From positions 23,057-87,056 of the forward strand of contig UQWU01000002.1 in NCBI GenBank assembly GCA_900544885.1: DNA of 64,000 nucleotides, written 5' to 3'. This DNA comes from an uncultured Phascolarctobacterium sp. GTDB lineage: Bacteria > Bacillota > Negativicutes > Acidaminococcales > Acidaminococcaceae. The translations under genes and the position numbers were made by a program. Of the stretch, positions 1 to 27,301 are shown one piece after another (positions within the stretch are counted from its first letter, which is position 1; every line of letters starts with the position of its first letter). The notes below the pieces were generated by a model. It was not told the DNA's origin and searched no databases. It saw nothing but the letters and a program-made list of their open reading frames with translations.

Positions 1-1029
1 AGCCGATTACCTCCGTTTTCAGATTTTGTTTGTGCAAGTATTCTAAGGCGTTAGCAATACCATCTTTAGTACCACAAATTTCAACAATTAATGTACCGAA
101 GGAAACATCTTTTAATTGGTCGATATTGCCATAAAGGATGCTGATATCAACATCAAAATGTTTAACTAAGCCAGAGATAATCGGTTCTCCGGCCGAAGAA
201 CCGATGAAAGAAATGCGGGCAATTAACTTACTGCCGTCAGTATAGTTTTCACGAAGGTTTTTATTTTTAACCATTTTGGGGATTTCGGCATTGATAACAC
301 TTTTGGTAAATTCTTTAGTTGTAGGATGTTGCGGATTGGTGAAGACATCTACCATAGGGCCTTCTTCGATAATATTACCTGCTTCTATAACTGCAACGCG
401 ATCACAGATTGTTTTAACAACTTCCATTTGGTGAGTAATCATCACTATAGTAAGATTTAGTTTTTTATTAATGTCCTGCAAAAGTTCAAGGATAGATTTA
501 GTTGTTTGCGGATCTAAGGCAGAGGTTGCTTCATCACACAGCAATACCTTCGGATTGCTGGCAAGTGCACGGGCAATGCCTACACGTTGCTTTTGACCAC
601 CGGAGAGCTGGCTGGGATAGTAGTTAGCACGGCTTTCTAATTGTACCAACTCTAATAAAGGGCGTACACGCTTTTCTATTTCAGCCTTGCTTAAGCCTTG
701 GATTTCCAAAGGGAAAGCAATATTATCATAAACGGTACGACTAGTCAGCAGGTTAAAGTGTTGGAAAATCATACCGATGCTTTGACGTGTTTTACGCAGT
801 TGTGCGTCGTTCATAGCAGTAAGTTCTTCACCATCAACAAATACTTGTCCTGCTGTCGGTCTTTCAAGCATATTGATGCAGCGTACTAAGGTGGATTTAC
901 CTGCACCTGACAGACCGATAATACCAAAAATTTCACCGGCTTTAATGCTCAGATTGGTTGTGTTGAGTGCATGAATATCACCGGCTTTACTGTAGTAGGT
1001 TTTTTCTACATTTACTAGTTCTATCATAC
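1..1029 (-). CDS. metN: Methionine ABC transporter ATP-binding protein MetN. The start codon is at 1029 and the 3' end runs off the window edge.
   Basis: Reverse-strand translation starts MIELVNVEKTYYSKAGDIHALNTTNLSIKAGEIFGIIGLSGAGKSTL with Walker A. It continues through LSGGQKQRVGIARALA and ILLCDEATSALDP, then a C-terminal NIL-like domain (VKHFDVDISILYGNIDQLKDVSFGTLIVEICGTKDGI). The ORF is absent from the track because it is edge-truncated. Confidence 0.85.
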
Positions 1030-1107
1030 TAAAAGTCCTTTCTTGTGCGGATTTTGACCAAGCTTAATAAGAAATTCATTATTATAATTTGTGAGAGTGC
1101 GTTTTTG

Positions 1108-1262
1108 CTAAAAAAAAATCCTTCACCGTACAGTGAAGGATATATCTTGCGTATAGTATATCTTCATCTGCCGGATATTGTTCCGATGGAATTGGCACCG
1201 TTCGCAGAAGCGTGGTTGCCGTAGCGTCATAGGGCCATTCCCTCAGCTACTCTTGATGAAAT
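1108..1262 (-). promoter_or_regulatory. SAM-I (S-box) riboswitch with an intrinsic terminator expression platform, in the metN leader
   Basis: The minus-strand RNA reads UUCAUCAAGAGUAGCUGAGGGAAUGGCCCUAUGACGCUACGGCAACC...GGUGCCAAUUCC...GGCAGAUGAAG, matching the S-box consensus AUCAAGAG...GAGGGA.UGGCCC.AUGA...GCAACC...GGUGC.AA.UCC...GAUGA. It ends in the hairpin CCUUCACcguacaGUGAAGG followed by U9 (plus-strand 1110-1140). Confidence 0.85.
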
Positions 1263-1469
1263 TTCTATTAAGTTTAATGAAATTATTATACATTTATTTA
1301 GCATTGTTGTCAACAAAAAAATAGGTGCAAAAAGCTTTTCAAGAGAATAAATAAAGTATAAAAAATTCTTGACTTTCATAAGATAAAATATTAAAGTGTT
1401 TTTAGATAAGTTGATTTATAACTTCTTATTATATATACATACAAACTTACTACATATCGGAGGCTAAAA

Positions 1470-1802
1470 ATGTCTGCAAATCTTCATGACCATTTAACTG
1501 ACCAATTATTTAAAGCTGTTTTGAGCTTAAAGGACCAAGAGCAATGTTATAGATTTTTTGAGGATATCTGTACTATTAGTGAGCTTAAAGCTTTGGCACA
1601 ACGCTTGGAAGTGGCACGTATGCTTGATGAGGGTTGTATTTATGAAACCATAGTAGAAAAAACCGGTGCCAGCACTGCAACCATTTCCCGTGTTAAACGT
1701 TGCCTTGTTTATGGTGCAGATGGCTATCGCTCTGTTTTAGGCGTATTAGAAAATGATAATGATAAGAATACAGAAGCTGATGAAAAAGCGATGAAAAAAT
1801 AA
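1470..1802 (+). CDS. YerC/YecD-family TrpR-like putative DNA-binding protein
   Basis: The 110-aa ORF has an RBS ggaggctaaaaATG. Its ELKALAQRLEVARML...ETIVEKTGASTATISRVKRCL region resembles the Trp-repressor-like HTH of the YerC/YecD family. Confidence 0.6.
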   Translation: MSANLHDHLTDQLFKAVLSLKDQEQCYRFFEDICTISELKALAQRLEVARMLDEGCIYETIVEKTGASTATISRVKRCLVYGADGYRSVLGVLENDNDKNTEADEKAMKK

Positions 1803-1838
1803 GCTTTTTATTGAACATTAGGGAGAGGAAGAATTATA

Positions 1839-3032
1839 ATGAAAGATTTTTTTGTGCGTGAATGTCTTAAAAATCAAAATGATTATACAGTGGCAACTGT
1901 GAATGCGGATATTATTCTCAATGCTAATGAAAGTAACTATCCTCTGCCCGAAGAACTGGCGGAGAAGATGAGTAAAATTGCTGCTAATTTTCCGTTTCAT
2001 AGATATCCGCCTGTAAAAGCAGAAAACTTATGCGAGGTTATTGCGGAAGACTTGGATGTGGATCCTGAATGTATCCGTATCAGTAATGGTTCCAGTGATT
2101 TATTGGAGAAAGCGTGCTATGTATTCGGTGGAGAAGGAAGTAAAATTGCTATTCCGTATCCGTCCTTTGCTATGTACGGTGAATATGTGGGCTTAAGTGG
2201 TAGCGAGCCTTGCTATTATTCGCTAAACAATGAAGGTTTTATCGATGCAGATACTGTTATTGAGTTGTGCTTGCAGGAAAAGCCGTCTTTATTGATTATT
2301 TGTAATCCTAATAATCCGACTGGTAACTATAATTCTTTAGCTGTTATTGAAAAAATTATTTCTAGTGTCGAATGCCCGGTAATTTTGGACGAGGCATATA
2401 TGGAGTTTGCAGACGGTAAGGAAATGCCTCCTAATGATATGCGTCCTTTGCATAAGCTGTGGCTGGTAGCAGGCTCGGCATTGAGCCTGTTAGGCAGATA
2501 TAGTAATTTTATTGTGTTACGCACTTTTTCTAAAGCTTATGGTTTAGCAGGACTACGTTGCGGTTATGGGGCAGGGTCCTTGTTTTTGATGCGTCATTTG
2601 GGTAAAGCCATATTGCCATATCATGTTAATGCGTTTACTTTGTATATGGCAAAAATGGTTTATGAAAATAAAGAGCTGTATAAGGGACGTATTAAGACTA
2701 TTGATGAAGAACGAGATAAATTAGCGGCTTATTGCCGTAAGATGGGCTTTTATGTTTATCCTTCTTCAGCTAATTTCTTATTATTAAAGGCTGAGGGATT
2801 ATTAATGGAGCATATGGCGGCCAAATATGCTGCTGATTATGATGAAAGTATCGAGCAGCAGGAAGCCAGTGGTAAATTATTAGTAAGATATTTATTAGAA
2901 AACGGTATTTTAGTTAGTGATTTTTCGGCACATCCTGCTTTACAGGGGTGTGTACGTATTACTATCGGCGTACCGGAGGAAAATAAACAGCTGTTGAATC
3001 GCATCACCGAATTATGCGTTGCATTGGAATGA
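1839..3032 (+). CDS. Class I/II PLP-dependent aminotransferase of the HisC (histidinol-phosphate/aromatic aminotransferase) family
   Basis: The 397-aa ORF carries ILDEAYMEF and RTFSKAYGLAGLRCGYG, a PLP-lysine motif typical of HisC-like enzymes. There is an insertion of about 20 aa between these two motifs. Confidence 0.7.
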   Translation: MKDFFVRECLKNQNDYTVATVNADIILNANESNYPLPEELAEKMSKIAANFPFHRYPPVKAENLCEVIAEDLDVDPECIRISNGSSDLLEKACYVFGGEGSKIAIPYPSFAMYGEYVGLSGSEPCYYSLNNEGFIDADTVIELCLQEKPSLLIICNPNNPTGNYNSLAVIEKIISSVECPVILDEAYMEFADGKEMPPNDMRPLHKLWLVAGSALSLLGRYSNFIVLRTFSKAYGLAGLRCGYGAGSLFLMRHLGKAILPYHVNAFTLYMAKMVYENKELYKGRIKTIDEERDKLAAYCRKMGFYVYPSSANFLLLKAEGLLMEHMAAKYAADYDESIEQQEASGKLLVRYLLENGILVSDFSAHPALQGCVRITIGVPEENKQLLNRITELCVALE

Positions 3033-3062
3033 TACAGTTTTCCATGTAAATAATGACACAAT

Positions 3063-3106
3063 AAAATGGGGTTTACAGTTCTGTGCAACACCATTTTATT
3101 TTTTTA
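3063..3106 (+). terminator. Rho-independent terminator after the aminotransferase gene
   Basis: AAAATGGGGTT...AACACCATTTT forms an 11-bp stem with one mismatch, followed by a T8 run. Confidence 0.55.
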
Positions 3107-3207
3107 CATACAAAAGTGTAAGAATATAGTATAATGAGTTCATTCACATTTTCATAGAGTAAGTATTTAGCAAATAAAGATAAATATTGCAGGAAGAGAG
3201 GATTTTT

Positions 3208-3780
3208 ATGGACGAACAGAAGAAACAGATACCACAGCTTATTGAAGTAGAACCGATGCAGGATGGCTATCGCTGGGTAGCGATTACGGCAATGCTTCTG
3301 GCTATCGGTATTATTTTACATACAGTAAGCCCTAATGTGGGTGGTGTTACTCCTAACTGGACAATTGCCATGTATGCGATTGTTATTAATTTGACCAGAC
3401 TTAAATTAAAGCAGGCTATCGGTATAGGATTTATTGCAGGTCTGACTTTGGTACCGACTTCTAAATCTGCGTTTCCCTTGGGTAATGTTATTAGTGAAAT
3501 GTTTGGTGCAACCATCTGCTATTTACTGGTAGAGGCGATGTTCAAGGCTAAAATTGGTGAATGGAAGCTGCGTCCGTTTATTACAGGCTTTGTGGCTACT
3601 GTAACCAGTGGTGCTTTGTTTACCTATATTTTAAAGGTAGTTTTAGGTTTACCGTTGCATGTGTGGGTTTATGCAATGTTGCCCGTAGTAGCGATTATCG
3701 GATTGCTGAACGGCTTGATTACGTTCTTCCTTTATGCACCTGTGCGTAAATTATTTTATTTCCAGGAGGATGAAAAGTAA
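3208..3780 (+). CDS. ECF transporter substrate-specific (S) component, specificity unknown (possibly TrpP-like)
   Basis: The protein is about 190 aa with six predicted TM helices. It is immediately followed by ecfA, ecfA' and ecfT. The RBS GGAAGAGAGG sits 6 nt before the ATG at 3208. The track's TTG at 3187 lacks an RBS. Confidence 0.65.
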   Translation: MDEQKKQIPQLIEVEPMQDGYRWVAITAMLLAIGIILHTVSPNVGGVTPNWTIAMYAIVINLTRLKLKQAIGIGFIAGLTLVPTSKSAFPLGNVISEMFGATICYLLVEAMFKAKIGEWKLRPFITGFVATVTSGALFTYILKVVLGLPLHVWVYAMLPVVAIIGLLNGLITFFLYAPVRKLFYFQEDEK

Positions 3781-10971: not shown

Positions 10972-11016
10972 AAGTATATAAGAGCATGAGAAGGCTCTTA
11001 TATACTTGTTTTTTTG
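10972..11016 (+). terminator. Rho-independent terminator after murI
   Basis: The perfect 14-bp stem AAGTATATAAGAGC...GCTCTTATATACTT is followed by GTTTTTTT. Confidence 0.85.
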
Positions 11017-11141
11017 TTAATGGGAATTATCTCCTATAAGTCATTTGCTTGAAGCAATCTTAATGCTAATTGTTTGAGGCACTATGTTGTTATAGTAGTG
11101 TTCCAAAGTTAACTAAAATATTATAAAGAAAGGTGGTAGCT

Positions 11142-11717
11142 GTGGAAAAGCAGGGAGTATTGAACAACAAAAATATTGTAGGTTCGACTATGGTTCATAA
11201 GCTGTGCATGGCATTGGTGCTCTTTGGATTTTGGATGGCTCTTTCCGGCAGAACGGAAACAAAATTTGTCGTTTATGGAATTATTACCGCATTAGTAACA
11301 ACGCATATTACTTATCCTTTGTTGTTAGTGCCTAATAAAGATGGAAGTAAACGCTATTTTGTCTTTGGTGCGTCCATACCTAAGTTCATCGTATATTTTC
11401 TGTGGCTGATGTGGCAGCTGGTATTGGCTAACATTGACGTGTTATTAGCGACAACTTCCCAAGAGCTGGAAATCGATCCTAAAGTAGTACGCTTCTATTT
11501 TAAAGTTGATAATCCTATGGCCTCTGTAATGCTTGCAAACTCCATTACGCTGACCCCGGGTACAGTAACTTTGAATGTTACTGATGATGGTCTGTACGAA
11601 ATCCACGCTTTGACCAAAGGAGCTGCAGAAGGCGTTCTTGATGGTTCTATGCAGAAAAAGGTAGCTGATTTGTACGGTGAAAAATTTGATTTTGCTGTAG
11701 TGGAGAGTGAGGAATGA
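11142..11717 (+). CDS. mrpE: Mrp/Mnh-type cation:proton antiporter subunit E (MbhA-like)
   Basis: The MnhE signature is SITLTPGTVTLNV. The start is ambiguous: GTG at 11133 or 11142, or ATG at 11190. AAAGGTGG lies 7 nt before the GTG at 11142. Confidence 0.7.
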   Translation: MEKQGVLNNKNIVGSTMVHKLCMALVLFGFWMALSGRTETKFVVYGIITALVTTHITYPLLLVPNKDGSKRYFVFGASIPKFIVYFLWLMWQLVLANIDVLLATTSQELEIDPKVVRFYFKVDNPMASVMLANSITLTPGTVTLNVTDDGLYEIHALTKGAAEGVLDGSMQKKVADLYGEKFDFAVVESEE

Positions 11718-11983
11718 TTATGAATGTTATTTTTTATATTTTAATGATTTCCATAATCTTTGTTATCGGCACTATGCTGCAGCGTCTTTTTAACGGCCCC
11801 ACTATTTTTGACAGAATGAACGGCTTGGGTGTTATTGGTGCCGACACTATTTTACTGTTAGTTTTGTTCGGATATATTGACGGTCGTCCGGATATGTATG
11901 TAGATATTGCAATTTCTTATGCATTTCTCGGATTTATCGGTTCTGTAATTGTGGCAAAATTTCTGGGAGGGAAGAAGATATGA
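11714..11983 (+). CDS. mrpF: Mrp antiporter subunit F (MbhB-like)
   Basis: The 89-aa protein has NGPTIFDRMNGLGVIGADTIL, typical of MnhF. It overlaps its neighbours by 4 nt. Confidence 0.8.
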   Translation: MIMNVIFYILMISIIFVIGTMLQRLFNGPTIFDRMNGLGVIGADTILLLVLFGYIDGRPDMYVDIAISYAFLGFIGSVIVAKFLGGKKI

Positions 11984-12390
11984 TTGAGAGCTTTGGATTT
12001 AACTCCCTCAGAGAAGTTATAGCAGCAATTTTTATGTTAGGTGGTTTGGTGTTCTTTATCGGTTCTGCAATCGGTATGTTGCGCCTGCCTGACTTTTATA
12101 GCAGAATACATGCTTCCGGCAATAGTGAGACCTTGGGTTGTACCCTTTCTTTTATCGGTTTGATTATTTATGAGGGCCCGACTCTTACTGCTGTGAAAAT
12201 GGCGTTTGCTTTTTTGATTGTATTTATGGCCAATCCTATCGGCTCCCATATTTTAAGCAAGGCTGCTTATAAATCAGGACATCCGGTATGGACTTTGAAA
12301 ACTAAGGGTGCAAGAAAGTTGGTAGGCTTAGATAAGCATGATACCAGTGCTGATGAACCTTTGGGCAATCTGACGAAAAAGGAGGAATAA
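11980..12390 (+). CDS. mrpG: Mrp antiporter subunit G (MbhC-like)
   Basis: The MnhG motif is GSAIGMLRLPDFYSRIHASGNSETLG. Confidence 0.8.
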   Translation: MIESFGFNSLREVIAAIFMLGGLVFFIGSAIGMLRLPDFYSRIHASGNSETLGCTLSFIGLIIYEGPTLTAVKMAFAFLIVFMANPIGSHILSKAAYKSGHPVWTLKTKGARKLVGLDKHDTSADEPLGNLTKKEE

Positions 12391-12393
12391 TAA

Positions 12394-12636
12394 ATGCAGA
12401 TTTATATTATTGAGGCTGTGTTATTGCTCTTTTTGATTCTGATTACCTGCGCAGTTATTTTCTGTAAGGACATTCTGAGTGCGGCAATTATTTATAGCGG
12501 TTTCAGCTTCTGTGCTGTATTGCTGTATTTGATGATGGGTTCTCCGGACGTTGCGTTCACAGAAGCTGTTATCGGTACGATCTCTACAATCTTTTTTGTA
12601 GCTTCTTTGAAAAAAATCGACAGGTGGTGTAAATAA
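12394..12636 (+). CDS. Small MrpB-related membrane subunit (DUF4040/MbhD-like)
   Basis: The 80-aa protein has GSPDVAFTEAVIGTISTIFFV, resembling the DUF4040 domain found at the C-terminus of MrpA and in MbhD. Confidence 0.6.
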   Translation: MQIYIIEAVLLLFLILITCAVIFCKDILSAAIIYSGFSFCAVLLYLMMGSPDVAFTEAVIGTISTIFFVASLKKIDRWCK

Positions 12637-12962
12637 TGCGTGGATTAGTAGCTGTAATTCTGGCCGTTATGACAGGCATGTTTTGTTCAGTAGTAACGTA
12701 TTTACCTGAAATTGGTGATGCTAATACTGCACCTAACCAGCATGTTACTCCGACTTATATCTCTCGTAGTGCAGAGGATACGGGTTCTCCTAATATCGTA
12801 ACCGGCGTCATCATTGACTATAGAGGTTTCGATACAATGTGGGAAACTTCCGTAATGTTTCTGGCAGGTCTGACCACAGTATTGGTTCTGACTAGTAATC
12901 CTGTGGGACGTCGTCCTGAGGAAGAGCCGGAAGATCCTGAGGAAGGAGAGATTATCAAATGA
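12636..12962 (+). CDS. Small Mrp-associated membrane subunit (MbhE-like; carries an MrpB-type motif)
   Basis: The 108-aa protein has NIVTGVIIDYRGFDTMWETSV, which resembles the MrpB/MnhB motif. It ends in an acidic tail. Confidence 0.55.
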   Translation: MRGLVAVILAVMTGMFCSVVTYLPEIGDANTAPNQHVTPTYISRSAEDTGSPNIVTGVIIDYRGFDTMWETSVMFLAGLTTVLVLTSNPVGRRPEEEPEDPEEGEIIK

Positions 12963-13411
12963 AAGAACCATTTGGTGGTATTATCCTCAATGTCGCCTTC
13001 CGTATGTTAATACCATTTACTATTGTTTACGGTGTCTATGTATTGTGCTTAGGCGAGTTTTCTCCTGGCGGCGGTTTCCAGGCAGGTGCCCTGTTGGCGG
13101 TTGGTGTTTTACTGGCAAGATTGATTTTAGGCTTTGATACTAAATTCAATGTTTTAGGTAAGACTTCCGTTGTTTTAGCAGGTGTCGGTACTTTTTTGTA
13201 TGCCTTTACAGGTTGGCTGACTTTGCTTGGCGGTGCTGACTTCTTCCTGAACTATGATTATATGCCGCTGCATATGGAGCCGAAGTATGAAATGCATGCT
13301 ACAGGTATTTTCCTGATTGAAATTGGTGTTGCTATCTGTGTTATGATGACAATTATCAATTTGTTAGACGCAATCGTGAAAAGGGGTGAAGATGATGGAA
13401 GTGTTAAATGA
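12959..13411 (+). CDS. mrpB: Mrp antiporter subunit B (MbhF-like)
   Basis: The 150-aa protein has FSPGGGFQAGALLAVG, the MnhB hallmark. Confidence 0.8.
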   Translation: MKEPFGGIILNVAFRMLIPFTIVYGVYVLCLGEFSPGGGFQAGALLAVGVLLARLILGFDTKFNVLGKTSVVLAGVGTFLYAFTGWLTLLGGADFFLNYDYMPLHMEPKYEMHATGIFLIEIGVAICVMMTIINLLDAIVKRGEDDGSVK

Positions 13412-13769
13412 GTTTTTAAAAACAAAAGGCATCTACTCTTTAGTCATGATACTCTTTTTCTTAGGTGTCTACGGTATGGTTTTGAGTAAAAACTATATGA
13501 AAAAATTAATGGCAATGAACGTTATGCAGGTTGCCGTAATTTATTTCTATCTTTGCTTTGCACAAAAAGACGGTGCGATGATTCCTATTCAAAATGGTGT
13601 CACCACTGATCCTGCTGCATATATTAACCCGCTTCCTCATGGCCTGATGCTGACGGCAATCGTTGTTAGCTTAGGTACAACAGGTGTAGCTATTGCTCTT
13701 TTAATGCGTATTAAAGAGATTTATGGTTCTGTTGAAGAGGTAGAGGTTCTGAGGAGGGCAAGTAAATGA
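13386..13769 (+). CDS. mrpC: Mrp antiporter subunit C (NuoK-like; MbhG-like)
   Basis: The 127-aa protein has three TM helices. Its position and size match MnhC. Confidence 0.7.
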   Translation: MKMMEVLNEFLKTKGIYSLVMILFFLGVYGMVLSKNYMKKLMAMNVMQVAVIYFYLCFAQKDGAMIPIQNGVTTDPAAYINPLPHGLMLTAIVVSLGTTGVAIALLMRIKEIYGSVEEVEVLRRASK

Positions 13770-15259
13770 CTCAGCATGCTCCTGTCCTTATTGTACTTCT
13801 GCCGCTTACAGCATCACTTCTATGTATGCTGTTCAGCAGAATTAAAAGAACTTTAGGTTCTTGGATTGTTATGGCATCCATTGTCGGTGCCTTTATTAAC
13901 GCCTGCATCGTACTGCACAGAGTAATTTCCAGTGGTGGCCAGACATGGCATTACTGGATGGGTGGTTGGGCTCCACCAATCGGTATCGAGTTTGCTCTGG
14001 ATCCGTTAAATAGTATTTTAGCAGTTCTGGTAACGTTTATTTCTATGCTGGTTGCACTGTACAGCAAGCCTTTCGTCAAGGATGAAGATTGGCTACATGT
14101 CGGCGGTTATTATACCTTATTTGGTCTGTTGACTGTTGGCCTGTGCGGTATGATTATTACTGGCGACGTTTTCAATTTATATGTATATCTTGAAATCATG
14201 TCTTTGTCTGGTTACGGCTTTTTTGCGTTGGGCGGCAAAAAATCTATGCTGGCAGCGTTCCGTTACCTGCTGATTGGTACTATTGGCGCTTCCTTATATC
14301 TGTTGGGTGTTGGTTATCTGTATTCTATGACCGGTACTCTGAACATGGCAGATATGGCAGCGAGAGTAGTTCCGTTTATGAATTCTCCGTTGTTTGCTAT
14401 TGCCGTAGCTTGCTTTATTATTGGCTTCGGTATCAAAATGGCTTTGTTCCCATTACATGGCTGGCAGCCTGATGCGTATACCTTTGCTCATCCTGGTGCA
14501 GCTGCTTTCATTGCAGGCTGCATGAGTAAGGCTCCTGCTTATGCATTGATTCGTTTTGTTTACTATATCTTCAAAGTTGATAACCCTGTTATGCATAGCG
14601 CTTTGAATGTTTTGGGTATTCTCGGTGTTGCAGGTATCTTGATTGGCTCTATCATGGCTATGGCACAATACGACTTCCGTCGTATGCTGGCATATTCCAG
14701 TGTTGCTCAGATAGGTTATATTGCTATTGGTTTGGCAATGGGTAATATGTATGGCTTTATAGGTGCTGTTCTGCATATCATCAACCATGCTTTCATGAAG
14801 AGCGGCCTGTTCCTGGTAATTGGTGGTATTGAGTATCGCTTCGGCGAGGTTAATCTGTATCGTTTAGGTGGTATGAATAAGAAGATGACCATCAGTACGA
14901 TTACCGTTACTTTGGCAGCTTTATCCATGATCGGTTTACCGCCGACTGCAGGTTTCTTTAGTAAATGGTATCTGATGCTTGGTGCTTATACCGGTGAACA
15001 ATACTTTTACATCGGCGTTTTGATTATCAGCTCCCTGTTAAATGCTATTTATTTCTTCCGTATTATTGAGCAGATGTTTGTACAACGTGAAGCTTCTCTG
15101 ACAGAGGTTCATCCTCACAAAGGTAAACTTGGTTTACCGTTTGCTATGGCATTACCTATTCTGGTTGTTGGTATAGGTATTCTGGCACTGGGCTTCTACA
15201 GTGTAGACATTGTTACGGATGTTATTAAATTAGGCTTGCCGGAGGTGTTTCTGAGATGA
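13766..15259 (+). CDS. mrpD: Mrp antiporter subunit D (NuoM/N-like proton-pumping subunit; MbhH-like)
   Basis: The 497-aa polytopic protein has the conserved motifs FPLHGWQPDAY...HAFMKSGLF of complex I antiporter-like subunits. Confidence 0.85.
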   Translation: MTQHAPVLIVLLPLTASLLCMLFSRIKRTLGSWIVMASIVGAFINACIVLHRVISSGGQTWHYWMGGWAPPIGIEFALDPLNSILAVLVTFISMLVALYSKPFVKDEDWLHVGGYYTLFGLLTVGLCGMIITGDVFNLYVYLEIMSLSGYGFFALGGKKSMLAAFRYLLIGTIGASLYLLGVGYLYSMTGTLNMADMAARVVPFMNSPLFAIAVACFIIGFGIKMALFPLHGWQPDAYTFAHPGAAAFIAGCMSKAPAYALIRFVYYIFKVDNPVMHSALNVLGILGVAGILIGSIMAMAQYDFRRMLAYSSVAQIGYIAIGLAMGNMYGFIGAVLHIINHAFMKSGLFLVIGGIEYRFGEVNLYRLGGMNKKMTISTITVTLAALSMIGLPPTAGFFSKWYLMLGAYTGEQYFYIGVLIISSLLNAIYFFRIIEQMFVQREASLTEVHPHKGKLGLPFAMALPILVVGIGILALGFYSVDIVTDVIKLGLPEVFLR

Positions 15260-16761
15260 CGATTATAGATTGCAGACCATTTCTGGCAGTAGGGGTTTCC
15301 TTTATTGCTGCAGTTCTCATCGCATTCAGCAGACGTTGGCCGAACCTGCGTGAAACTTGGAGTGTTATCGCTTCTGTTTTAAAATTTGCTATTATCCTTT
15401 CCATGGTACCTGCTGTTTTAGCAGGCGATCAATATCAATGGACTCTGTGTCAGATTACTGATACAGTAGGTCTGACATTGCGTACCGACCCGGCAGGTAT
15501 GATTTTTGCTGTACTTGCTTCTATGTTGTGGGTACCGATGAACTTCTACTCCATCGGTTACATGCGTTGTAACCATGAGAGTGAACAAACCGGTTATTTT
15601 GCCGCATTTGCTATCTGTATGAGTGCAGTAATGGGCATTGCAATGGCAGAAAACCTGCTGACTTTCTTTATCTTCTATGAAATCTTGACCTTAGCAAGCT
15701 ATCCGCTGGTATTACATAAACGTAATCAGGAAGCGTTGATGGCTAGCCGTAAATATTTGATTTATACATTGATTTCCGGTCAGTTATTCTTAGCCGGTGT
15801 TATCGCTGTTTACTGCATCAGTGGTACTATGGAATTCACTCCTGGTGGTTTCCTGACTACTGATATGGCACCGAGATGGGTACTACAGGCAATTTTTGTA
15901 TTAATGATTTTGGCAGGTTCTGTAAAAGCAGCTGTAATGCCGTTGCATGGATGGCTGCCGGCAGCAATGATTGCTCCTACTCCTGTATCTGCACTGTTGC
16001 ATGCAGTTGCCGTTGTAAAAACAGGTGTCTTCGCAGTATTGCGTATTATAGGCTTCGTCTTTGGCCCGAAGCTGTTAGCTGAAATCGGTGTTACCGATGT
16101 TCTGGCTTGGGCCGCAGCTACCAGTATTATAGTATCCTCCTTGATTGCATTGCGTCAGGATCACTTGAAACGCAGACTGGCTTTCTCTACAGTAGGTCAG
16201 TTATCCTACATTGTTCTGGGTGCTGCGCTTATTTCTCCGTTGAGCATCAAGGGTGCTTACCTCCATCTGGTTGCCCATGCTGTTATGAAAATTACCCTAT
16301 TTATGTGTGCCGGTCTTATTATTGCTCGTACGCATAGAAATAACATTAGTGAACTATACGGTATCGGTAAAAAGTTACCGGTAACGATGGCTTGCTTTAC
16401 GATAGCTTCGCTTGGTATTGCAGGTACGCCGTTTTTAGTCGGCTTTATTAGTAAATGGAATTTGGCTTTGGGTGCTTTACAAGCAGGTAAACCATTATAC
16501 ATCTTGGTTTGGGTTGCCAGTGCACTGCTAGCAGCCGGTTATTTACTGCCGGTATGTCAGATGGCATATTTCCGTAAAGATCCGCAAGAAAAATTCCGCA
16601 AATATGGCGATGCAAGCTATGCAATGTTGATTCCTATCTGCATTACCACTTTAATTGCCATTGTTTTGGGTACTGTTCCTGATATTTATCCGCATTTTTA
16701 TGAAATGGCAACTATGGCCTCCAACGCTATTTGCGCAGGCTGGCATGGGGGGTGGCTGTAA
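15256..16761 (+). CDS. Second MrpD/NuoM-like antiporter subunit
   Basis: The 501-aa protein has MPLHGWLPAAM...HAVMKITLFM. It is a paralog of the preceding gene. Confidence 0.85.
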   Translation: MTIIDCRPFLAVGVSFIAAVLIAFSRRWPNLRETWSVIASVLKFAIILSMVPAVLAGDQYQWTLCQITDTVGLTLRTDPAGMIFAVLASMLWVPMNFYSIGYMRCNHESEQTGYFAAFAICMSAVMGIAMAENLLTFFIFYEILTLASYPLVLHKRNQEALMASRKYLIYTLISGQLFLAGVIAVYCISGTMEFTPGGFLTTDMAPRWVLQAIFVLMILAGSVKAAVMPLHGWLPAAMIAPTPVSALLHAVAVVKTGVFAVLRIIGFVFGPKLLAEIGVTDVLAWAAATSIIVSSLIALRQDHLKRRLAFSTVGQLSYIVLGAALISPLSIKGAYLHLVAHAVMKITLFMCAGLIIARTHRNNISELYGIGKKLPVTMACFTIASLGIAGTPFLVGFISKWNLALGALQAGKPLYILVWVASALLAAGYLLPVCQMAYFRKDPQEKFRKYGDASYAMLIPICITTLIAIVLGTVPDIYPHFYEMATMASNAICAGWHGGWL

Positions 16762-16997
16762 TGTCTAAGAAACAGACTTATCTGGCTTGTGCCATTGTTT
16801 TAATTATATCTGTAATTGCTGAGATGTGTGGTATTCACATGCATAGTCCTGCATGGTGGCCGCTACCTTTCGGCTATGATATTTTCTTCGGATTCGTCGG
16901 CTGCTGGGTTTTGATTATTTTAGCTAAATTAATCATGACACCGCTTCTGCAGCGTAATGAAGACTATTATGAAAGCAGAGGTGAGGATAATGAGTAA
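16761..16997 (+). CDS. Small two-TM membrane protein of the Mrp cluster (MbhI-like by position)
   Basis: The 78-aa ORF starts at an ATG that overlaps the preceding TAA. It has two hydrophobic helices and an acidic C-terminus. Confidence 0.5.
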   Translation: MSKKQTYLACAIVLIISVIAEMCGIHMHSPAWWPLPFGYDIFFGFVGCWVLIILAKLIMTPLLQRNEDYYESRGEDNE

Positions 16998-18729
16998 TGT
17001 GCTTCACCCGGGCTTGGTATTAATAGCGGTAGGCTTCATTGCTTTGCTGATGCCTAAATTCCTGCGCAGAGTTGTTTTGGCAATAGGTCCTTTTGCCGGC
17101 TTATATGCCGCATTGAATATGCCTATAGGTACTGATATCAGTATAGGTTTGTTCGGCACAGGTTACCAGCTGGGATATATGTACGTCGACAAATTAAGCT
17201 ATGTATTCTGTATGATTTTCGCAATGATGGCCTGTATCGGTGGTATTTATTCCTGCCATAACTCTAATCGTATGGAAACTTTCAGCTCCATGGCCTATGC
17301 AGGTTGTGCTTTGGGCGTAACCTTAGCCAAGGATTGGCTGACCATGATTTTCTTCTGGGAAGCATTGGCTGTTACTTCTTTGTTCTTAATCTGGTGTCAT
17401 CATACACCTGCCTCTAGACGTGCAGGCTTCCGTTATCTGTTAGTTCACATGTTTGGTGGTAACTTATTGCTTGGCGGTATTTTCTTGAAATATGGTACTG
17501 GTGATATGCTTATCAGTAATTTGGCACAAGGTCCTCATGATATTGCCTTTTGGGCAATTTTAATCGGTGTTGCTGTTAATGCTGCTATTCCGCCGCTGAA
17601 CGCTTGGTTGGTAGATGCATATCCTGAAGGTACTATTACAGGCAGCGTATTCTTGAGCTCCTTTACTACTAAGGTTGCGGTATACTGTTTAATTCGTATC
17701 TTCGCCGGTGCTGATTTCCTTATGGGCTTTGGCTGCTTTATGGCGTTGTATGGTGCAGCATTTGCGATTATGGAAAACGATATGCGTCGTCTGCTTGGTT
17801 ATCATATCATAAGTCAGGTAGGTTTTATGGTAGCTGGTGTCGGTGTTGGTACTGCTATGGCCTTAAATGGTGCAGCTGCCCATGCATTCTCCCATATTCT
17901 TTACAAATCTCTGCTCTTTATGTGTGCCGGTGCTATTATTTATGCAACAGGCATTCGTAAAATCAATCAACTCAGTGGTATGGCTAAGAAAATGCCGTTT
18001 GTGGCAGTATGCTTCTTTGTTGCTGCTTTCTCCATTTCCGGCGTACCGTTCTTCAATGGTTTTATTAGTAAAACTATTACCATTGCTGCAGCATCTGCAG
18101 CTGGCTATGATTGGATATATACTTTACTGGAGTTGGCTAGTATCGGTACTTTCCTGTCCATTACTTTGAAAATGGGTTACTTCATTTTCTTGCGTGACAC
18201 TGACAAAGACGTGCATCTTGCTCACAAATTGCCGAAAAATATGTATGTAGCAATGGGGTTAGGCTCTGTGCTTTGCTTCCTTTATGGTGTATATCCTGAT
18301 TTGTTATATCGTTATCTGCCGTTCGGAGCACCTGGATATGAACCGTATACTGCAGCTCATATTCTGAGCTATGTAGAAATCTTAGTCGTTACTATGGTTC
18401 CGTTTATGATGTTCCTGCCGCGTATGGAGCCGCACACAGCACTCAGCTTGGATACTGATTGGTTCTATCGCAAACCGATAGCTTTCATTATTTACAGACT
18501 GACAACGCTGTTCTGCGCATTGAGCGGCGCTCTTGGTAGTGCATGGCGTGTATTGTACGAGAAATTTATGGAACTTACTACTAATCCTATGGATTTCTTG
18601 GATGCGAAACCGTTCCGTAAACGTACACACTATAATCCTGAAAACTACCGTACATCTATTGCAGATCCTATGATGATTACTTTAACAGTCTTGGTAAGCA
18701 GTATTGCTTACTTTATTGCTACACTCTAA
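16990..18729 (+). CDS. Third antiporter-like large subunit (NuoL/MrpA-like, lacking the MrpB-like C-terminal domain)
   Basis: The 580-aa protein has PPLNAWLVDAYPEG...HAFSHILYKSLLFM. The RBS AGGTGAGGATA precedes the ATG at 16990. Confidence 0.8.
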   Translation: MSNVLHPGLVLIAVGFIALLMPKFLRRVVLAIGPFAGLYAALNMPIGTDISIGLFGTGYQLGYMYVDKLSYVFCMIFAMMACIGGIYSCHNSNRMETFSSMAYAGCALGVTLAKDWLTMIFFWEALAVTSLFLIWCHHTPASRRAGFRYLLVHMFGGNLLLGGIFLKYGTGDMLISNLAQGPHDIAFWAILIGVAVNAAIPPLNAWLVDAYPEGTITGSVFLSSFTTKVAVYCLIRIFAGADFLMGFGCFMALYGAAFAIMENDMRRLLGYHIISQVGFMVAGVGVGTAMALNGAAAHAFSHILYKSLLFMCAGAIIYATGIRKINQLSGMAKKMPFVAVCFFVAAFSISGVPFFNGFISKTITIAAASAAGYDWIYTLLELASIGTFLSITLKMGYFIFLRDTDKDVHLAHKLPKNMYVAMGLGSVLCFLYGVYPDLLYRYLPFGAPGYEPYTAAHILSYVEILVVTMVPFMMFLPRMEPHTALSLDTDWFYRKPIAFIIYRLTTLFCALSGALGSAWRVLYEKFMELTTNPMDFLDAKPFRKRTHYNPENYRTSIADPMMITLTVLVSSIAYFIATL

Positions 18730-18742
18730 AATTTAGTTGAAT

Positions 18743-18778
18743 AAAACCCGAATGTCGTAAGACTTTCGGGTTTTATCT
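18743..18778 (+). terminator. Rho-independent terminator ending the Mrp cluster
   Basis: AAAACCCGAA...TTCGGGTTTT forms a 10-bp stem followed by a T run. Confidence 0.85.
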
Positions 18779-18806
18779 TCACTTACAAGGGAAAGGGAGA
18801 AGTTTT

Positions 18807-20338: not shown

Positions 20339-20414
<76 letters not shown>

Positions 20415-24600: not shown

Positions 24601-24864
24601 ATGAATCAAATGTCTGAAAATGCAATCATTACTGCCGCATCTGTAATTGGTGCAGGCCTTGTATGCTTGGGTGCTGCTGCTGGCGCTGGTATCGGTAACG
24701 GTAATATGTGCGGCAAATCTATTGAATCCATGGCTCGTCAACCGGAAGAAGCTGGTAAAATCTTTACCAACATGTTGGTATGCGTAGGCTTGATCGAATC
24801 CATGCCTATCCTGTGCTATGTAATCGCTATCGTTCTGGTATTCGCTAACCCGTTCATTAAATAA
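24601..24864 (+). CDS. atpE: F0F1 ATP synthase subunit c
   Basis: The 87-aa protein has GAGIGNGNMCGKSIESMARQPEE and the carboxylate in GLIESMPIL. This is a Bacillus-like (H+-type) signature. Confidence 0.9.
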   Translation: MNQMSENAIITAASVIGAGLVCLGAAAGAGIGNGNMCGKSIESMARQPEEAGKIFTNMLVCVGLIESMPILCYVIAIVLVFANPFIK

Positions 24865-25474: not shown

Positions 25475-27301
25475 ATGAAGAGTGAAGAAAATATTGCTTT
25501 ATTGAAGCAAGAATTGTCCGACTTCAAAATTGATCTGGGTTCTATTAAAGAACTGTTAGATGTTAATGTAACTACAGCCAAAAAACTGACTGTCGACGAG
25601 TATCAATCCATTTCTGCAATTCTCACCGAGAAACTGGGTCGCGAAATTTTCTTAAACAAGAAAGTAGATCCTTCTATCCTCGGCGGCATCATCGTACAAG
25701 TTGGCGATAAGGTATATGACGCTTCCGCTCTGCGTAAGCTGAAAAAAATGGAAGTAGCTCTGAATGGCATTGACATTCACGAATACACCAAACCTGAAGC
25801 TATGGGTGATGCTCTCAGCGCTAAGCTCGAGAATTACAAAGTGGATGCTGACCTTGAAGAAGTTGGTATCGTTGAAAAAATCGGTGACGGCATCGCAACT
25901 GTTATCGGTATGAAAAACGCAATGGCTGGCGAATTGGTTGAAATGCCCCATAACGTATCCGGCATGGTTCTGAACTTGAACCCTGATTCCGTTGGTATCG
26001 TATTAATGGGTGGCGAAACCAAAATTAAAGAAGGCGACATCGTTCGCCGTACCGGCCGCATCATGGAAGTTCCTGTTGGTGAAAACCTGCTGGGACGTGT
26101 AGTAAGTGCAATCGGTAATCCGATTGATGGCAAAGGCGAAATCGTTGCTGCTGCACATCGTCCGGTTGAATCTCCTGCACATGGTATCGCAGACCGTCAA
26201 CCGGTTGATACCCCGTTGCAAACCGGTATTAAATGTATCGACGCATTGGTTCCTATCGGACGTGGTCAGCGTGAATTAATCATCGGTGACCGTGGTACTG
26301 GTAAAACCGCTGTTGCAATCGATACTATCATCAACCAAAAAGGCTTAGGCGTTATCTGCATTTATGTAGCTATCGGCCAAAAAGCTTCTACTATTGCTCG
26401 TATTGTTCGTACTTTGGAACAACACGGTGCTATGGAATATACCATTATCGTAGCTGCTACTGCTGCTGACTCCGCTCCGCTGCAATATCTGGCTCCGTAT
26501 GCTGGCGTAACCATGGCTGAATACTTCATGGATCAAGGCAAAGACGTTCTGTGCGTATACGACGACCTGTCCAAACACGCTGTTGCATATCGTGCAATGT
26601 CCCTGCTGCTCCGCCGTCCGCCAGGACGTGAAGCTTACCCTGGTGACGTATTCTACTTGCATTCCCGTCTGTTGGAACGCGCTGCTCGTCTGAACGATGA
26701 ACTGAAAGGCGGTTCTATTACTGCTCTGCCTATCATCGAAACTCTGGCAGGTGACGTAGGCGGCTTCATTCCGACCAACGTAATTTCCATTACTGACGGT
26801 CAGATCTTCTTGGAATCTGAATTATTCTACGCAGGTATCCGTCCGGCTATTAACTCCGGTCTGTCCGTATCTCGTGTAGGTGGTGCTGCTCAGATTAAAG
26901 CTATGAAGCAAGTAGCTGGTACTTTACGTCTGGATTTGGCACAATTCCGCGAACTGGCAGCATTTGCTCAGTTTGCTTCTGACCTTGATAAAGCTACCAA
27001 AGCTCAATTGGACCGTGGTCAACGTCTGACCGAAGTTCTGAAACAAGGCCAATACAGCCCGCTGTCTGTTGAAAAACAAGTTATGGCAATTTACCTTGGC
27101 ACTAAAGGTTACCTGGATGACGTAGCAGTTAAAGACGTAACTCGCTGCGAAAAAGAATTCCTGGAATTCATGGCTGCAAACCATCCTGAAGTTGGTGCAG
27201 ACATCCTCAGCGCTAAGAAAATCACTGACGAAAATGAAGAAGCATTGAAGAAAGCTATCGCCGAGTTCAAGGAAACCTTTGTATCCAGTGAAGGCAGGTG
27301 A
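25475..27301 (+). CDS. atpH-atpA: In-frame fusion ORF: ATP synthase delta (OSCP) C-terminal domain (about aa 1-97) plus the full alpha subunit (aa about 100-608)
   Basis: The N-terminal part ([60 protein letters not shown]) matches the delta C-terminal domain. From [16 protein letters not shown] onward it matches alpha, including the Walker A GDRGTGKT. There is no stop between the two parts. Confidence 0.75.

Follow-up and report, generated by a model that had tools for sequence, protein, structure and literature searches.

A probable Mrp-type cation/proton antiporter with three antiporter-like subunits encoded by an eleven-gene operon of Phascolarctobacterium

Mrp antiporters are, among living systems, the nearest relatives of complex I's membrane arm, and how antiporter-like subunits are coupled is debated. 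Group 3 Mrp systems are defined by the lack of mrpA and the presence of mrpD, sometimes in multiple copies (Haja et al., 2021; PMC8415708, PMC5703873). Pyrococcus furiosus has a stand-alone cluster of this group, mrpEFGBB'CD (PF1147-53), which encodes all Mrp domains and no energy-input module (PMC8415708). Rhizobia have a green complex I in which a pair of MrpD-like subunits stands in for NuoL, according to the passage of PMC9040806 in which this is cited. Here we describe an eleven-gene cluster (11142-18729, + strand) in a 64-kb stretch of DNA from an uncultured Phascolarctobacterium sp. (contig UQWU01000002.1; the whole stretch is called the window). The cluster consists of a group 3 core extended by the genes of a trio, D2-X-D3, without redox genes, and we therefore read it as encoding a stand-alone antiporter with three antiporter-like subunits. 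Judged from the sequence, its product is likely to be an Mrp-type (CPA3, group 3) antiporter of monovalent cations and protons, self-contained and made up of eleven subunits.

The eleven co-directional open reading frames (ORFs) have the order MrpE-MrpF-MrpG-MbhD-like-MbhE-like-MrpB-MrpC-D1-D2-X-D3, all on the + strand. Start codons were chosen by reading the start codon together with the ribosome-binding site. MrpE (MbhA-type; 11142..11717; PF01899 MNHE, 1.5e-27) likely starts with GTG 11142, after AAAGGTGG, in a reading frame that is open from 11133. It is followed by MrpF (MbhB-type; 11714..11983; PF04066 MrpF_PhaF, 1.3e-14), MrpG (MbhC-type; 11980..12390; PF03334 PhaG_MnhG, 2.8e-23; TIGR01300, 76.5 against a cut-off of 63.1), the MbhD-like protein (12394..12636; PF13244 MbhD, 2.4e-18), the MbhE-like protein with its DYRGFDT motif (12636..12962; PF20501 MbhE, 7.5e-9), MrpB with its PGGGFQAG motif (MbhF-type; 12959..13411; PF04039 MnhB, 5.1e-24) and MrpC (NuoK/MbhG-type; 13395..13769; PF00420 Oxidored_q2, 4.8e-17), for which the top NCBIfam matches are MrpC models and which starts with ATG 13395, preceded by GGGGTG, in a frame open from GTG 13386. 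The domain types in the cluster are those of Mrp only and form the complete set (Pfam, NCBIfam), each of them above its Pfam gathering score. The MbhD-like protein aligns with about 600-700 and the MbhE-like protein with about 690-790 of full-length MrpA models (NCBIfam); by this alignment they correspond to the first and second halves of the C-terminal MrpB-like domain of MrpA. An mrpA of about 800 amino acids (aa) is absent, the largest subunits having 497, 501 and 579 aa and none of them an MbhD or MbhE domain; with several mrpD-like genes and a non-canonical order, the cluster thus has the features of a group 3 Mrp.

The genes overlap by 4 nucleotides (nt) at E/F, F/G, MbhE/B, C/D1 and D1/D2, by 1 nt at MbhD/MbhE and D2/X, by 8 nt at X/D3 and by 17 nt at B/C, and the sole gap, of 3 nt, is that between G and MbhD. 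The upstream neighbor is murI, encoding an Asp/Glu racemase (Pfam), and the operon is bounded on this side by the terminator-like hairpin after murI (10972..11017, + strand; hairpin 10972-11007), which has a 14-bp stem and then GTTTTTTTGT. Downstream lies an intrinsic terminator (18743..18779, + strand), in which the hairpin AAAACCCGAA...UUCGGGUUUU is followed by AUCUU. This hairpin (18743-18774, then UUUUAUCUU) has a calculated stability of −21.3 kcal/mol (z = −5.2), a value matched by 0 of 200 shuffles, and the next gene encodes an EamA/DMT transporter (Pfam). As far as gene layout goes, eleven co-directional, overlapping genes between terminators form a single operon. An earlier note on this DNA had described the eleven genes with this order and these sizes, the two motifs, the tight coupling by 4-nt and 1-nt overlaps and a strong terminator before the DMT gene, and all of this held in every detail checked (ORFs, Pfam, NCBIfam); the small subunits also matched the MbhD and MbhE families to which they had been assigned.

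Orthologues were surveyed with D3 as query against one genome per species, which gave at least 574 confirmed matches; in the best 80 loci of these, ORFs were called and searched with the eleven window proteins. The order of the eleven genes was identical in 66 complete loci and was seen in every one of the 80 that was long enough. The hosts belong to Phascolarctobacterium, Dialister, Selenomonadaceae, several Clostridia, Peptococcaceae, Balneolaceae, Melioribacter/Ignavibacteria and Chitinophagales. In Phascolarctobacterium genomes, that of P. succinatutens among them, the copies of D3 are 86-87% identical to that of the window, and the metagenomic locus of a distant homologue of X contains the same eleven genes by independently computed Pfam labels. 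Because the same order recurs in several phyla, the genes are not a chance collection of ORFs; they are a real, tightly packed operon. In all 66 loci the operon stops after D3, its boundaries coincide, and the flanks are unrelated between lineages. When 786 flank ORFs from the orthologous loci were clustered all against all, no neighbor gene was found to be conserved across lineages, flank families being common only within them. From the shared order and the unrelated flanks we infer that the operon behaves as a self-contained unit under purifying selection.

Every subunit contains signature residues that are at least 95% conserved. In MrpE these are the LTPGT motif and His158 (at least 95% in 67 orthologues) and in the MbhE-like protein D61, Y62, R63, D66, T67 and E70 of the motif DYRGFDT..E (at least 95%). 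The same level is reached by R35, D38, R42 and H44 in MrpG, D52 and E57 in the MbhD-like protein, and G37-Q41 (the GGGFQ motif) and E121 in MrpB. Conserved are also R34, R58, D64 and K82 in MrpF and K73 and H90 in MrpG. In seven loci from uncultured Clostridiales/Oscillospiraceae (L055, L057, L058, L064, L065, L067, L080) the gene before mrpC encodes a fusion of the MbhE-like protein with MrpB of about 260 aa; MbsE from P. furiosus has been described as a similar fusion. For the Clostridiales group formed by these loci except L055, a downstream catalytic module was considered and rejected, the many conserved, co-directional genes after D3 being of the housekeeping kind, namely Asp23, NusB, TsaD-like, XseA, IspA, Dxs and TlyA (Pfam).

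PF00361-like genes adjacent to the Mrp operon were seen as a lineage-specific feature. In Balneolaceae (L060, L063, L068, L073, L076) a divergent pair (about 673 and 520-540 aa), which is NuoL/M-like by size and score, is found just upstream of the operon (about 1-3600, minus strand). In an Ignavibacteriaceae locus (L071, 15866-20774) a trio of 645, 507 and 478 aa is found 4 kb downstream; these are probably nuoLMN.

Both by order and by family, the first eight genes of the operon agree with mbhA-H (Pfam; table in PMC8415708). From this likeness the cluster could be taken for the membrane arm of a respiratory complex (MBH/MBX/MBS-, formate hydrogenlyase- or complex-I-like) whose catalytic module is encoded elsewhere, an explanation which we consider highly improbable. 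The same order is also that of the stand-alone Mrp from P. furiosus, and it is therefore not a hydrogenase remnant (PMC8415708); the earlier note, in which the mbhA-H order had been pointed out, was right on this order. In MBH, MBS and complex I docking needs a NuoH/MbhM-type subunit together with MbhI or NuoA/J. Pfam searches that covered nearly every ORF of 110 aa or more in the 64-kb window revealed no NuoB/C/D/H/I-like or hydrogenase genes, as had been claimed, and neither the operon nor the window was found by Pfam to encode a NuoH/MbhM-type anchor, MbhI or MbhJ/K/L/N. In the orthologous loci examined none of the latter subunits was found within 10 kb. The cluster thus lacks both the anchor and the peripheral subunits of an MBH/MBX/MBS-type group 4 [NiFe]-hydrogenase-related complex, and the contiguous NuoA/H/J/K, Q-module and N-module genes of complex I or green complex I are absent. 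Also speaking against docking are the full Na+-module (MrpEFG plus B), which is present and conserved, and the genes that follow D3 in the 66 loci, which differ by lineage and, where checked, are housekeeping genes. Where D2-X-D3 does serve complex I, the trio directly adjoins the nuo genes, and MrpEFG, MbhD, MbhE and MrpB are missing. Of the two possibilities left by the earlier note, a stand-alone module with three pump-like subunits is the one favored; docking to a module encoded elsewhere finds neither an anchor nor a conserved neighbor.

The three large subunits were placed by their bit scores against PDB chains and by a score matrix that included the subunits from E. coli, Ensifer and Vicinamibacteria; their residue positions were anchored by alignment to the E. 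coli NuoL, NuoM and NuoN sequences. D1 (13766..15259, + strand, 497 aa; PF00361 Proton_antipo_M) gave 215 bits with MbsH, 197 with MrpD from B. pseudofirmus (7qru_D) and 190 with MbhH, versus about 100-110 with MrpA and NuoL/M/N. By these scores it is a plain MrpD/MbhH/MbsH-type protein with the complete canonical residue set, E143, K224, K255, K345 and K400 being conserved. D2 (15256..16761, + strand, 501 aa; PF00361 Proton_antipo_M) falls between the classes, its top PDB matches being a mixture of MbhH, NdhF, NuoL and MrpA. Conserved in D2 are E142, K224, H249, K255, K345 and K400. The region of its transmembrane helix (TM) 8 combines the NuoL/MrpA-type His (H249) with the NuoM/N-type Lys, and a lateral helix is absent. 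Of the canonical proton path (TM5 Glu, TM7 Lys, TM8 Lys or His, TM12 Lys or Glu), both D1 and D2 keep the Glu in TM5 and a Lys in TM7, TM8 and TM12.

D3 (16990..18729, + strand; Proton_antipo_M; ATG 16990, 579 aa, in an ORF of 590 aa) is remote from all solved chains (at most 111 bits, PDB). It passes the NCBIfam model NF009310 (PRK12668), "Na(+)/H(+) antiporter subunit D," with 614.7 against a cut-off of 564 (model 3-549 of 584), and this is also the name of its homologues at NCBI and, likewise, at JGI. In common with D1 and D2 it keeps the TM5 Glu (NuoL E144), the Lys at the position of NuoM K265, the TM11 His/His/Lys triad and the TM12 Lys. It departs from the canonical proton path at the position of the TM7 Lys (NuoL K229), where it has an Asn, as do 79 of 79 D3 orthologues; opposite this Asn a Lys is found in MrpD and MrpA from Dietzia, in MbhH and MbsH' (HMMER) and in E. 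coli NuoL/M/N. An AlphaFold2 model of D3 from a 28-sequence alignment (mean predicted local distance difference test, pLDDT, 81.6) has a confident 14-helix core and after it helices at 455-478 and 490-529 (40 residues), short ones to 543 and a last one at 553-578. This tail, though modeled with low confidence, is organized as in NuoL and MrpA, with TM15, a lateral helix and TM16. In Foldseek the MrpA chain 7qru_A came first, followed by MrpD, NuoL and MbsH' chains. D3 had been called NuoL-like in the earlier note, a name that fits its architecture and not its orthology. Several Acidobacterial homologues of D3 (P0355, P0357, P0360, P0362 and others) have a weak precomputed match to PF10125 (NADHdeh_related), which D3 of the window does not have at the threshold of E < 0.01.

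The exchange of Lys for Asn in all 79 orthologues, which is also found in D3 of green complex I, and the NuoL/MrpA-like C-terminal extension could mean that D3 has lost pumping and is a structural clamp, with its lateral helix holding D1 and D2, so that two proton paths would be left as in canonical Mrp. We think this explanation unlikely, though it deserves consideration. The TM5 Glu, the TM8 Lys, the TM11 triad and the TM12 Lys of D3 are invariant or nearly so, and because these other channel residues are so strictly conserved, a purely structural D3 is hard to accept.

X (16761..16997, + strand; ATG 16761; 78 aa, in an ORF of 78-88 aa) belongs to no Pfam family, and a profile search of the PDB sequences gave only chance-level matches (E = 0.5 or worse). 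It has two hydrophobic segments, which from hydrophobicity only are predicted to be transmembrane helices. Its homologues form 71 clusters, for which the sole name in any source is "hypothetical protein." A profile search of 1.84 billion representative proteins yielded 346 members; since the 150 listed among them all have 37-134 aa, X is not seen as a domain of a larger protein. The conserved part is the second hydrophobic segment with the C-terminal tail: in a 30-sequence alignment K56, which is in the second predicted helix, P61, Q64, R65, Y69 and Y70 are invariant, and across the 66 loci conservation of the Lys and of both Tyr is still 95% or more. The gene for X invariably lies between those for D2 and D3, both in the 66 Mrp loci and in the loci in which the trio is embedded in nuo genes.

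One of the 80 loci, from a Vicinamibacteria metagenome-assembled genome (L075, 7411-19426), contains strong orthologues of D2 and D3 and a weak match to X and lacks MrpEFG, MbhD, MbhE and MrpB. Its order by Pfam is nuoK, the trio, two Proton_antipo_M genes, nuoA, nuoB, nuoC and nuoE/F, with a probable nuoJ upstream and a probable nuoD. Two Acidobacterial loci (L083, 7435-21764; L084, 7516-21764) have the order nuoJ-nuoK-D2-X-D3-nuoM-nuoN-nuoA-B-C-D-E/F-G-H by precomputed Pfam, X having no Pfam label. A tblastn search of plasmids found relatives of D3 on 168 plasmid records, mostly rhizobial megaplasmids. In the Ensifer locus (L085, 6487-19470) the order is nuoJ, nuoK, D2, X, D3, nuoM, nuoN and nuoA through nuoG, and the three genes are annotated as "monovalent cation/H+ antiporter subunit D family protein" (D2), "hypothetical protein" (X, 84 aa) and "Na(+)/H(+) antiporter subunit D" (D3). 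With the copies from Ensifer and Vicinamibacteria, D2 of the window scored 376-404 bits and D3 388-421 bits, as compared with at most 135 bits for D2 and D3 with each other or with E. coli NuoL/M/N, the 135 being that of D2 with NuoL. The Asn of D3 is kept in the Vicinamibacteria and Ensifer copies, and the Lys/Tyr-Tyr pattern of X in the Vicinamibacteria copies. By its scores D2 is orthologous to the "MrpD-like" subunit that comes first in green complex I, and the nuo-embedded D2-X-D3 in place of nuoL is the published green complex I. The occurrence of the trio in this variant of complex I shows that antiporters and respiratory enzymes exchange pump modules with each other.

The antiporter encoded in the window would be a redox-free analogue of complex I's membrane arm; its subunit arrangement, ion specificity, stoichiometry and direction of transport and the role of X are proposed here from homology. 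The complex would have two parts. The first is a core like that of the P. furiosus Mrp and the MBH arm, with E, F, G and B as Na+-module, the MbhD-like protein, the MbhE-like protein and MrpC as connectors, and D1. The second is the distal module D2-X-D3, which would stand where canonical MrpA has its N-terminal NuoL-like half. The subunits would be arranged as [E,F,G,B]-[MbhD,MbhE,C]-D1-D2-D3; D3 would reach back over its neighbors with its lateral helix, which would hold the complex together, and X would probably be at or near the D2/D3 interface. Protons would move through the three antiporter-like subunits along the conserved Glu/Lys/His chain, in the manner of Mrp and complex I, and their movement would be coupled electrostatically to that of Na+, the likely substrate (or possibly of K+), through the E/F/G/B module. 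With three proton paths rather than two, the H+/Na+ ratio would be higher and the driving force per ion greater. In Negativicutes that decarboxylate succinate, the complex might interconvert Na+ and H+ gradients and support pH homeostasis.

The c subunit of the ATP synthase encoded in the window (24601-24864, + strand) has an Asn instead of Gln32 and ESM...L instead of EST...Y. Of Q/E/S/T/Y, which we take to be the signature of Na+-binding c-rings, it keeps only the Glu and the Ser; a complete Na+ site is probably missing, which points to a proton-coupled ATP synthase. The primary Na+ pump of Phascolarctobacterium is the Na+-translocating methylmalonyl-CoA decarboxylase (PMC7568257). With a decarboxylase that pumps Na+ and a c subunit that lacks the full Na+ signature, a role as interconverter of Na+ and H+ gradients is therefore reasonable, if speculative, and the complex is a candidate link in gut physiology between the Na+-based energy conservation from succinate decarboxylation and proton-based processes.

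In the ORF for the alpha subunit of the same ATP synthase (25475-27301, + strand, 608 aa), alpha is preceded by only the C-terminal half of the delta/OSCP domain (profile 82-172), which is fused to it in frame; after atpF there is no space in which an additional delta gene of full length could lie. An identical protein is encoded on 405 contigs, and clustering at 90% identity groups it with others into a set of 1150 members. Almost all of the members read have 607-608 aa, which is why the fusion is not an assembly error. The exact match that is named comes from a Phascolarctobacterium sp. metagenome-assembled genome, and in the orthologous loci fetched no match to the delta-alpha fusion was found.

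Mrp systems with specificity for K+ and for Ca2+ are on record (PMC5703873), and for the group 3 Mrp from P. furiosus the import of Na+ and export of H+ have been proposed (PMC8415708). The eleven-gene cluster could likewise encode an Mrp-type exchanger of a different cation, whether a K+/H+ one like Pha1 or a Ca2+/H+ one like that of Thermomicrobium roseum, or one that works mainly in the reverse direction, with Na+ in and H+ out, as would fit a host whose Na+ gradient comes from decarboxylation (PMC7568257) and whose c subunit lacks the full Na+ signature. We judge any of these to be quite unlikely. The sequence itself does not tell one ion from another; those acidic and His residues that are conserved in MrpE, MrpF and MrpG are generic for Mrp.

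Several points weigh against the reading as a self-contained monovalent cation/proton antiporter. In other lineages the D2-X-D3 trio works inside a redox enzyme. The view of the genome is that of the 64 kb, and a partner could be encoded elsewhere. D3 is without the TM7 Lys, which is held essential elsewhere, so its proton path may be altered or inactive, and its lateral helix and TM16 are modeled at low confidence (pLDDT about 45-60). One of the characterized Mrp complexes is a Ca2+/H+ antiporter (PMC5703873). Finally, in the literature we found no published assay and no biochemical or structural study of the eleven-gene type.

A more far-reaching proposal, which we put forward as a doubtful one, is that D2-X-D3 is an unrecognized, transferable distal pump module common to the eleven-subunit Mrp and green complex I. 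In it, K56 of X would be located at the D2/D3 interface and supply in trans the Lys lost from TM7 of D3, the Glu/Lys gating pair of the terminal pump being split between two polypeptides. The complex would then be a three-channel antiporter with an H+/Na+ ratio above that of canonical Mrp and would serve in Negativicutes as a converter between the Na+ gradient of the decarboxylase and the proton-coupled ATP synthase.

The surroundings of the operon in the window are as follows. Upstream are genes for a Trp-repressor-family regulator, an aminotransferase, an ECF/ABC transporter, a two-component system, a short-chain dehydrogenase/reductase (SDR) and MurI; near the window start there is an S-adenosylmethionine (SAM) riboswitch (86.9 bits; 1161-1262, − strand). 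Downstream are genes for the EamA transporter, a helix-turn-helix (HTH) regulator, a tRNA (20339-20411, + strand, between the genes for the HTH regulator and a WecA-like protein), a WecA/MraY-type protein and a UDP-GlcNAc 2-epimerase, and farther downstream the F-type ATP synthase operon and genes for MurA-like, MreB, Mla, TolC, TamB, BamA, Skp and lipid A proteins. The last of these form a co-directional outer-membrane/lipid A block (36573-63488, + strand), which is typical of diderm Negativicutes, agrees with the assignment of the DNA to Phascolarctobacterium, to which the best genome matches point as well, and comprises MlaE/F/D, TolC-like, TamB, BamA, Skp, LpxD, LpxC, FabZ, LpxA, LpxI, LpxB, MsbA, a KdtA-LpxK fusion and KdsB.

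The layout of the operon is widespread and already annotated as Mrp; it is of a known kind, with some details of mechanistic interest. In Verruconatronum alginivorum a cluster named "Mnh/MrpEFGBCD1D2D3" has 11 loci (PMC13274419), and in NPL-UPA2 Unc8 one is given as "MrpEFGBBBCD, MrpDD" (PMC6305446). From the gene lists in the published passages, these clusters, in different phyla, apparently have the same eleven-gene architecture, and they are annotated as multisubunit Na+/H+ antiporter; in the passages of the two genome papers that matched, neither X nor the residue change in D3 is mentioned (PMC13274419, PMC6305446). The novelty implied by the earlier note was thus overstated, also in view of D3 passing the NF009310 cut-off. 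The Mrp of Natranaerobius thermophilus, for which a review cites "three overlapping mrpB genes," was dropped as a precedent, the paper cited there (PMC2764116) being without a description of the cluster. In the literature searched, outside of which was the primary paper on green complex I, we found no mention of X, of the Lys-to-Asn change in D3 or of the Mrp D2-X-D3 being identical with the green complex I pair. None of these details changes the classification as an Mrp antiporter with an arrangement annotated in other bacteria. The eleven-subunit form is present in hundreds of species, abundant Negativicutes of the human gut among them, and is a natural experiment in three respects: it is a complex that has, like complex I, three pump-like subunits but is redox-free, its terminal subunit never has the TM7 Lys, and a small extra subunit with a Lys in the second predicted helix is conserved.

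With the group 3 Mrp from P. furiosus the operon shares the order E, F, G, MrpA-C-terminal-like MrpB, MrpB', C, D and the lack of both a full-length mrpA and a redox module. It differs in that separate MbhD-like and MbhE-like genes are found where P. furiosus has MrpB, and in that D2-X-D3 is added where the P. furiosus Mrp ends after one MrpD, giving three antiporter-like subunits. The canonical Mrp systems of groups 1 and 2 (Bacillus, Anoxybacillus, Dietzia; 7QRU, 6Z16, 7D3U) have the same seven domain types, and their MrpA shares with D3 the TM15, lateral helix and TM16 architecture. In the window, however, the order is EFG-first rather than ABCDEFG, the parts of MrpA are spread over three genes or more, there are one more antiporter-like subunit and one more small subunit, X, and D3 has an Asn in place of the TM7 Lys of MrpA and MrpD.

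The equivalents of MbhA-H in the membrane arms of MBH and MBS (6CFW, 6U8Y) are encoded in the window in the same order, and MBS has in MbsH' a second antiporter-like subunit, which bears a lateral helix; equivalents of MbhI, MbhM and MbhJKLN are absent from the window, and there are three antiporter-like subunits instead of one or two. In green complex I the trio is flanked by nuoK and nuoM within a complete nuo operon that has no MrpEFG, MbhD, MbhE or MrpB, whereas in the window it follows MrpD in an antiporter operon without redox genes. Common to both are orthologous D2, X and D3, in the same order and with the same Asn in D3.

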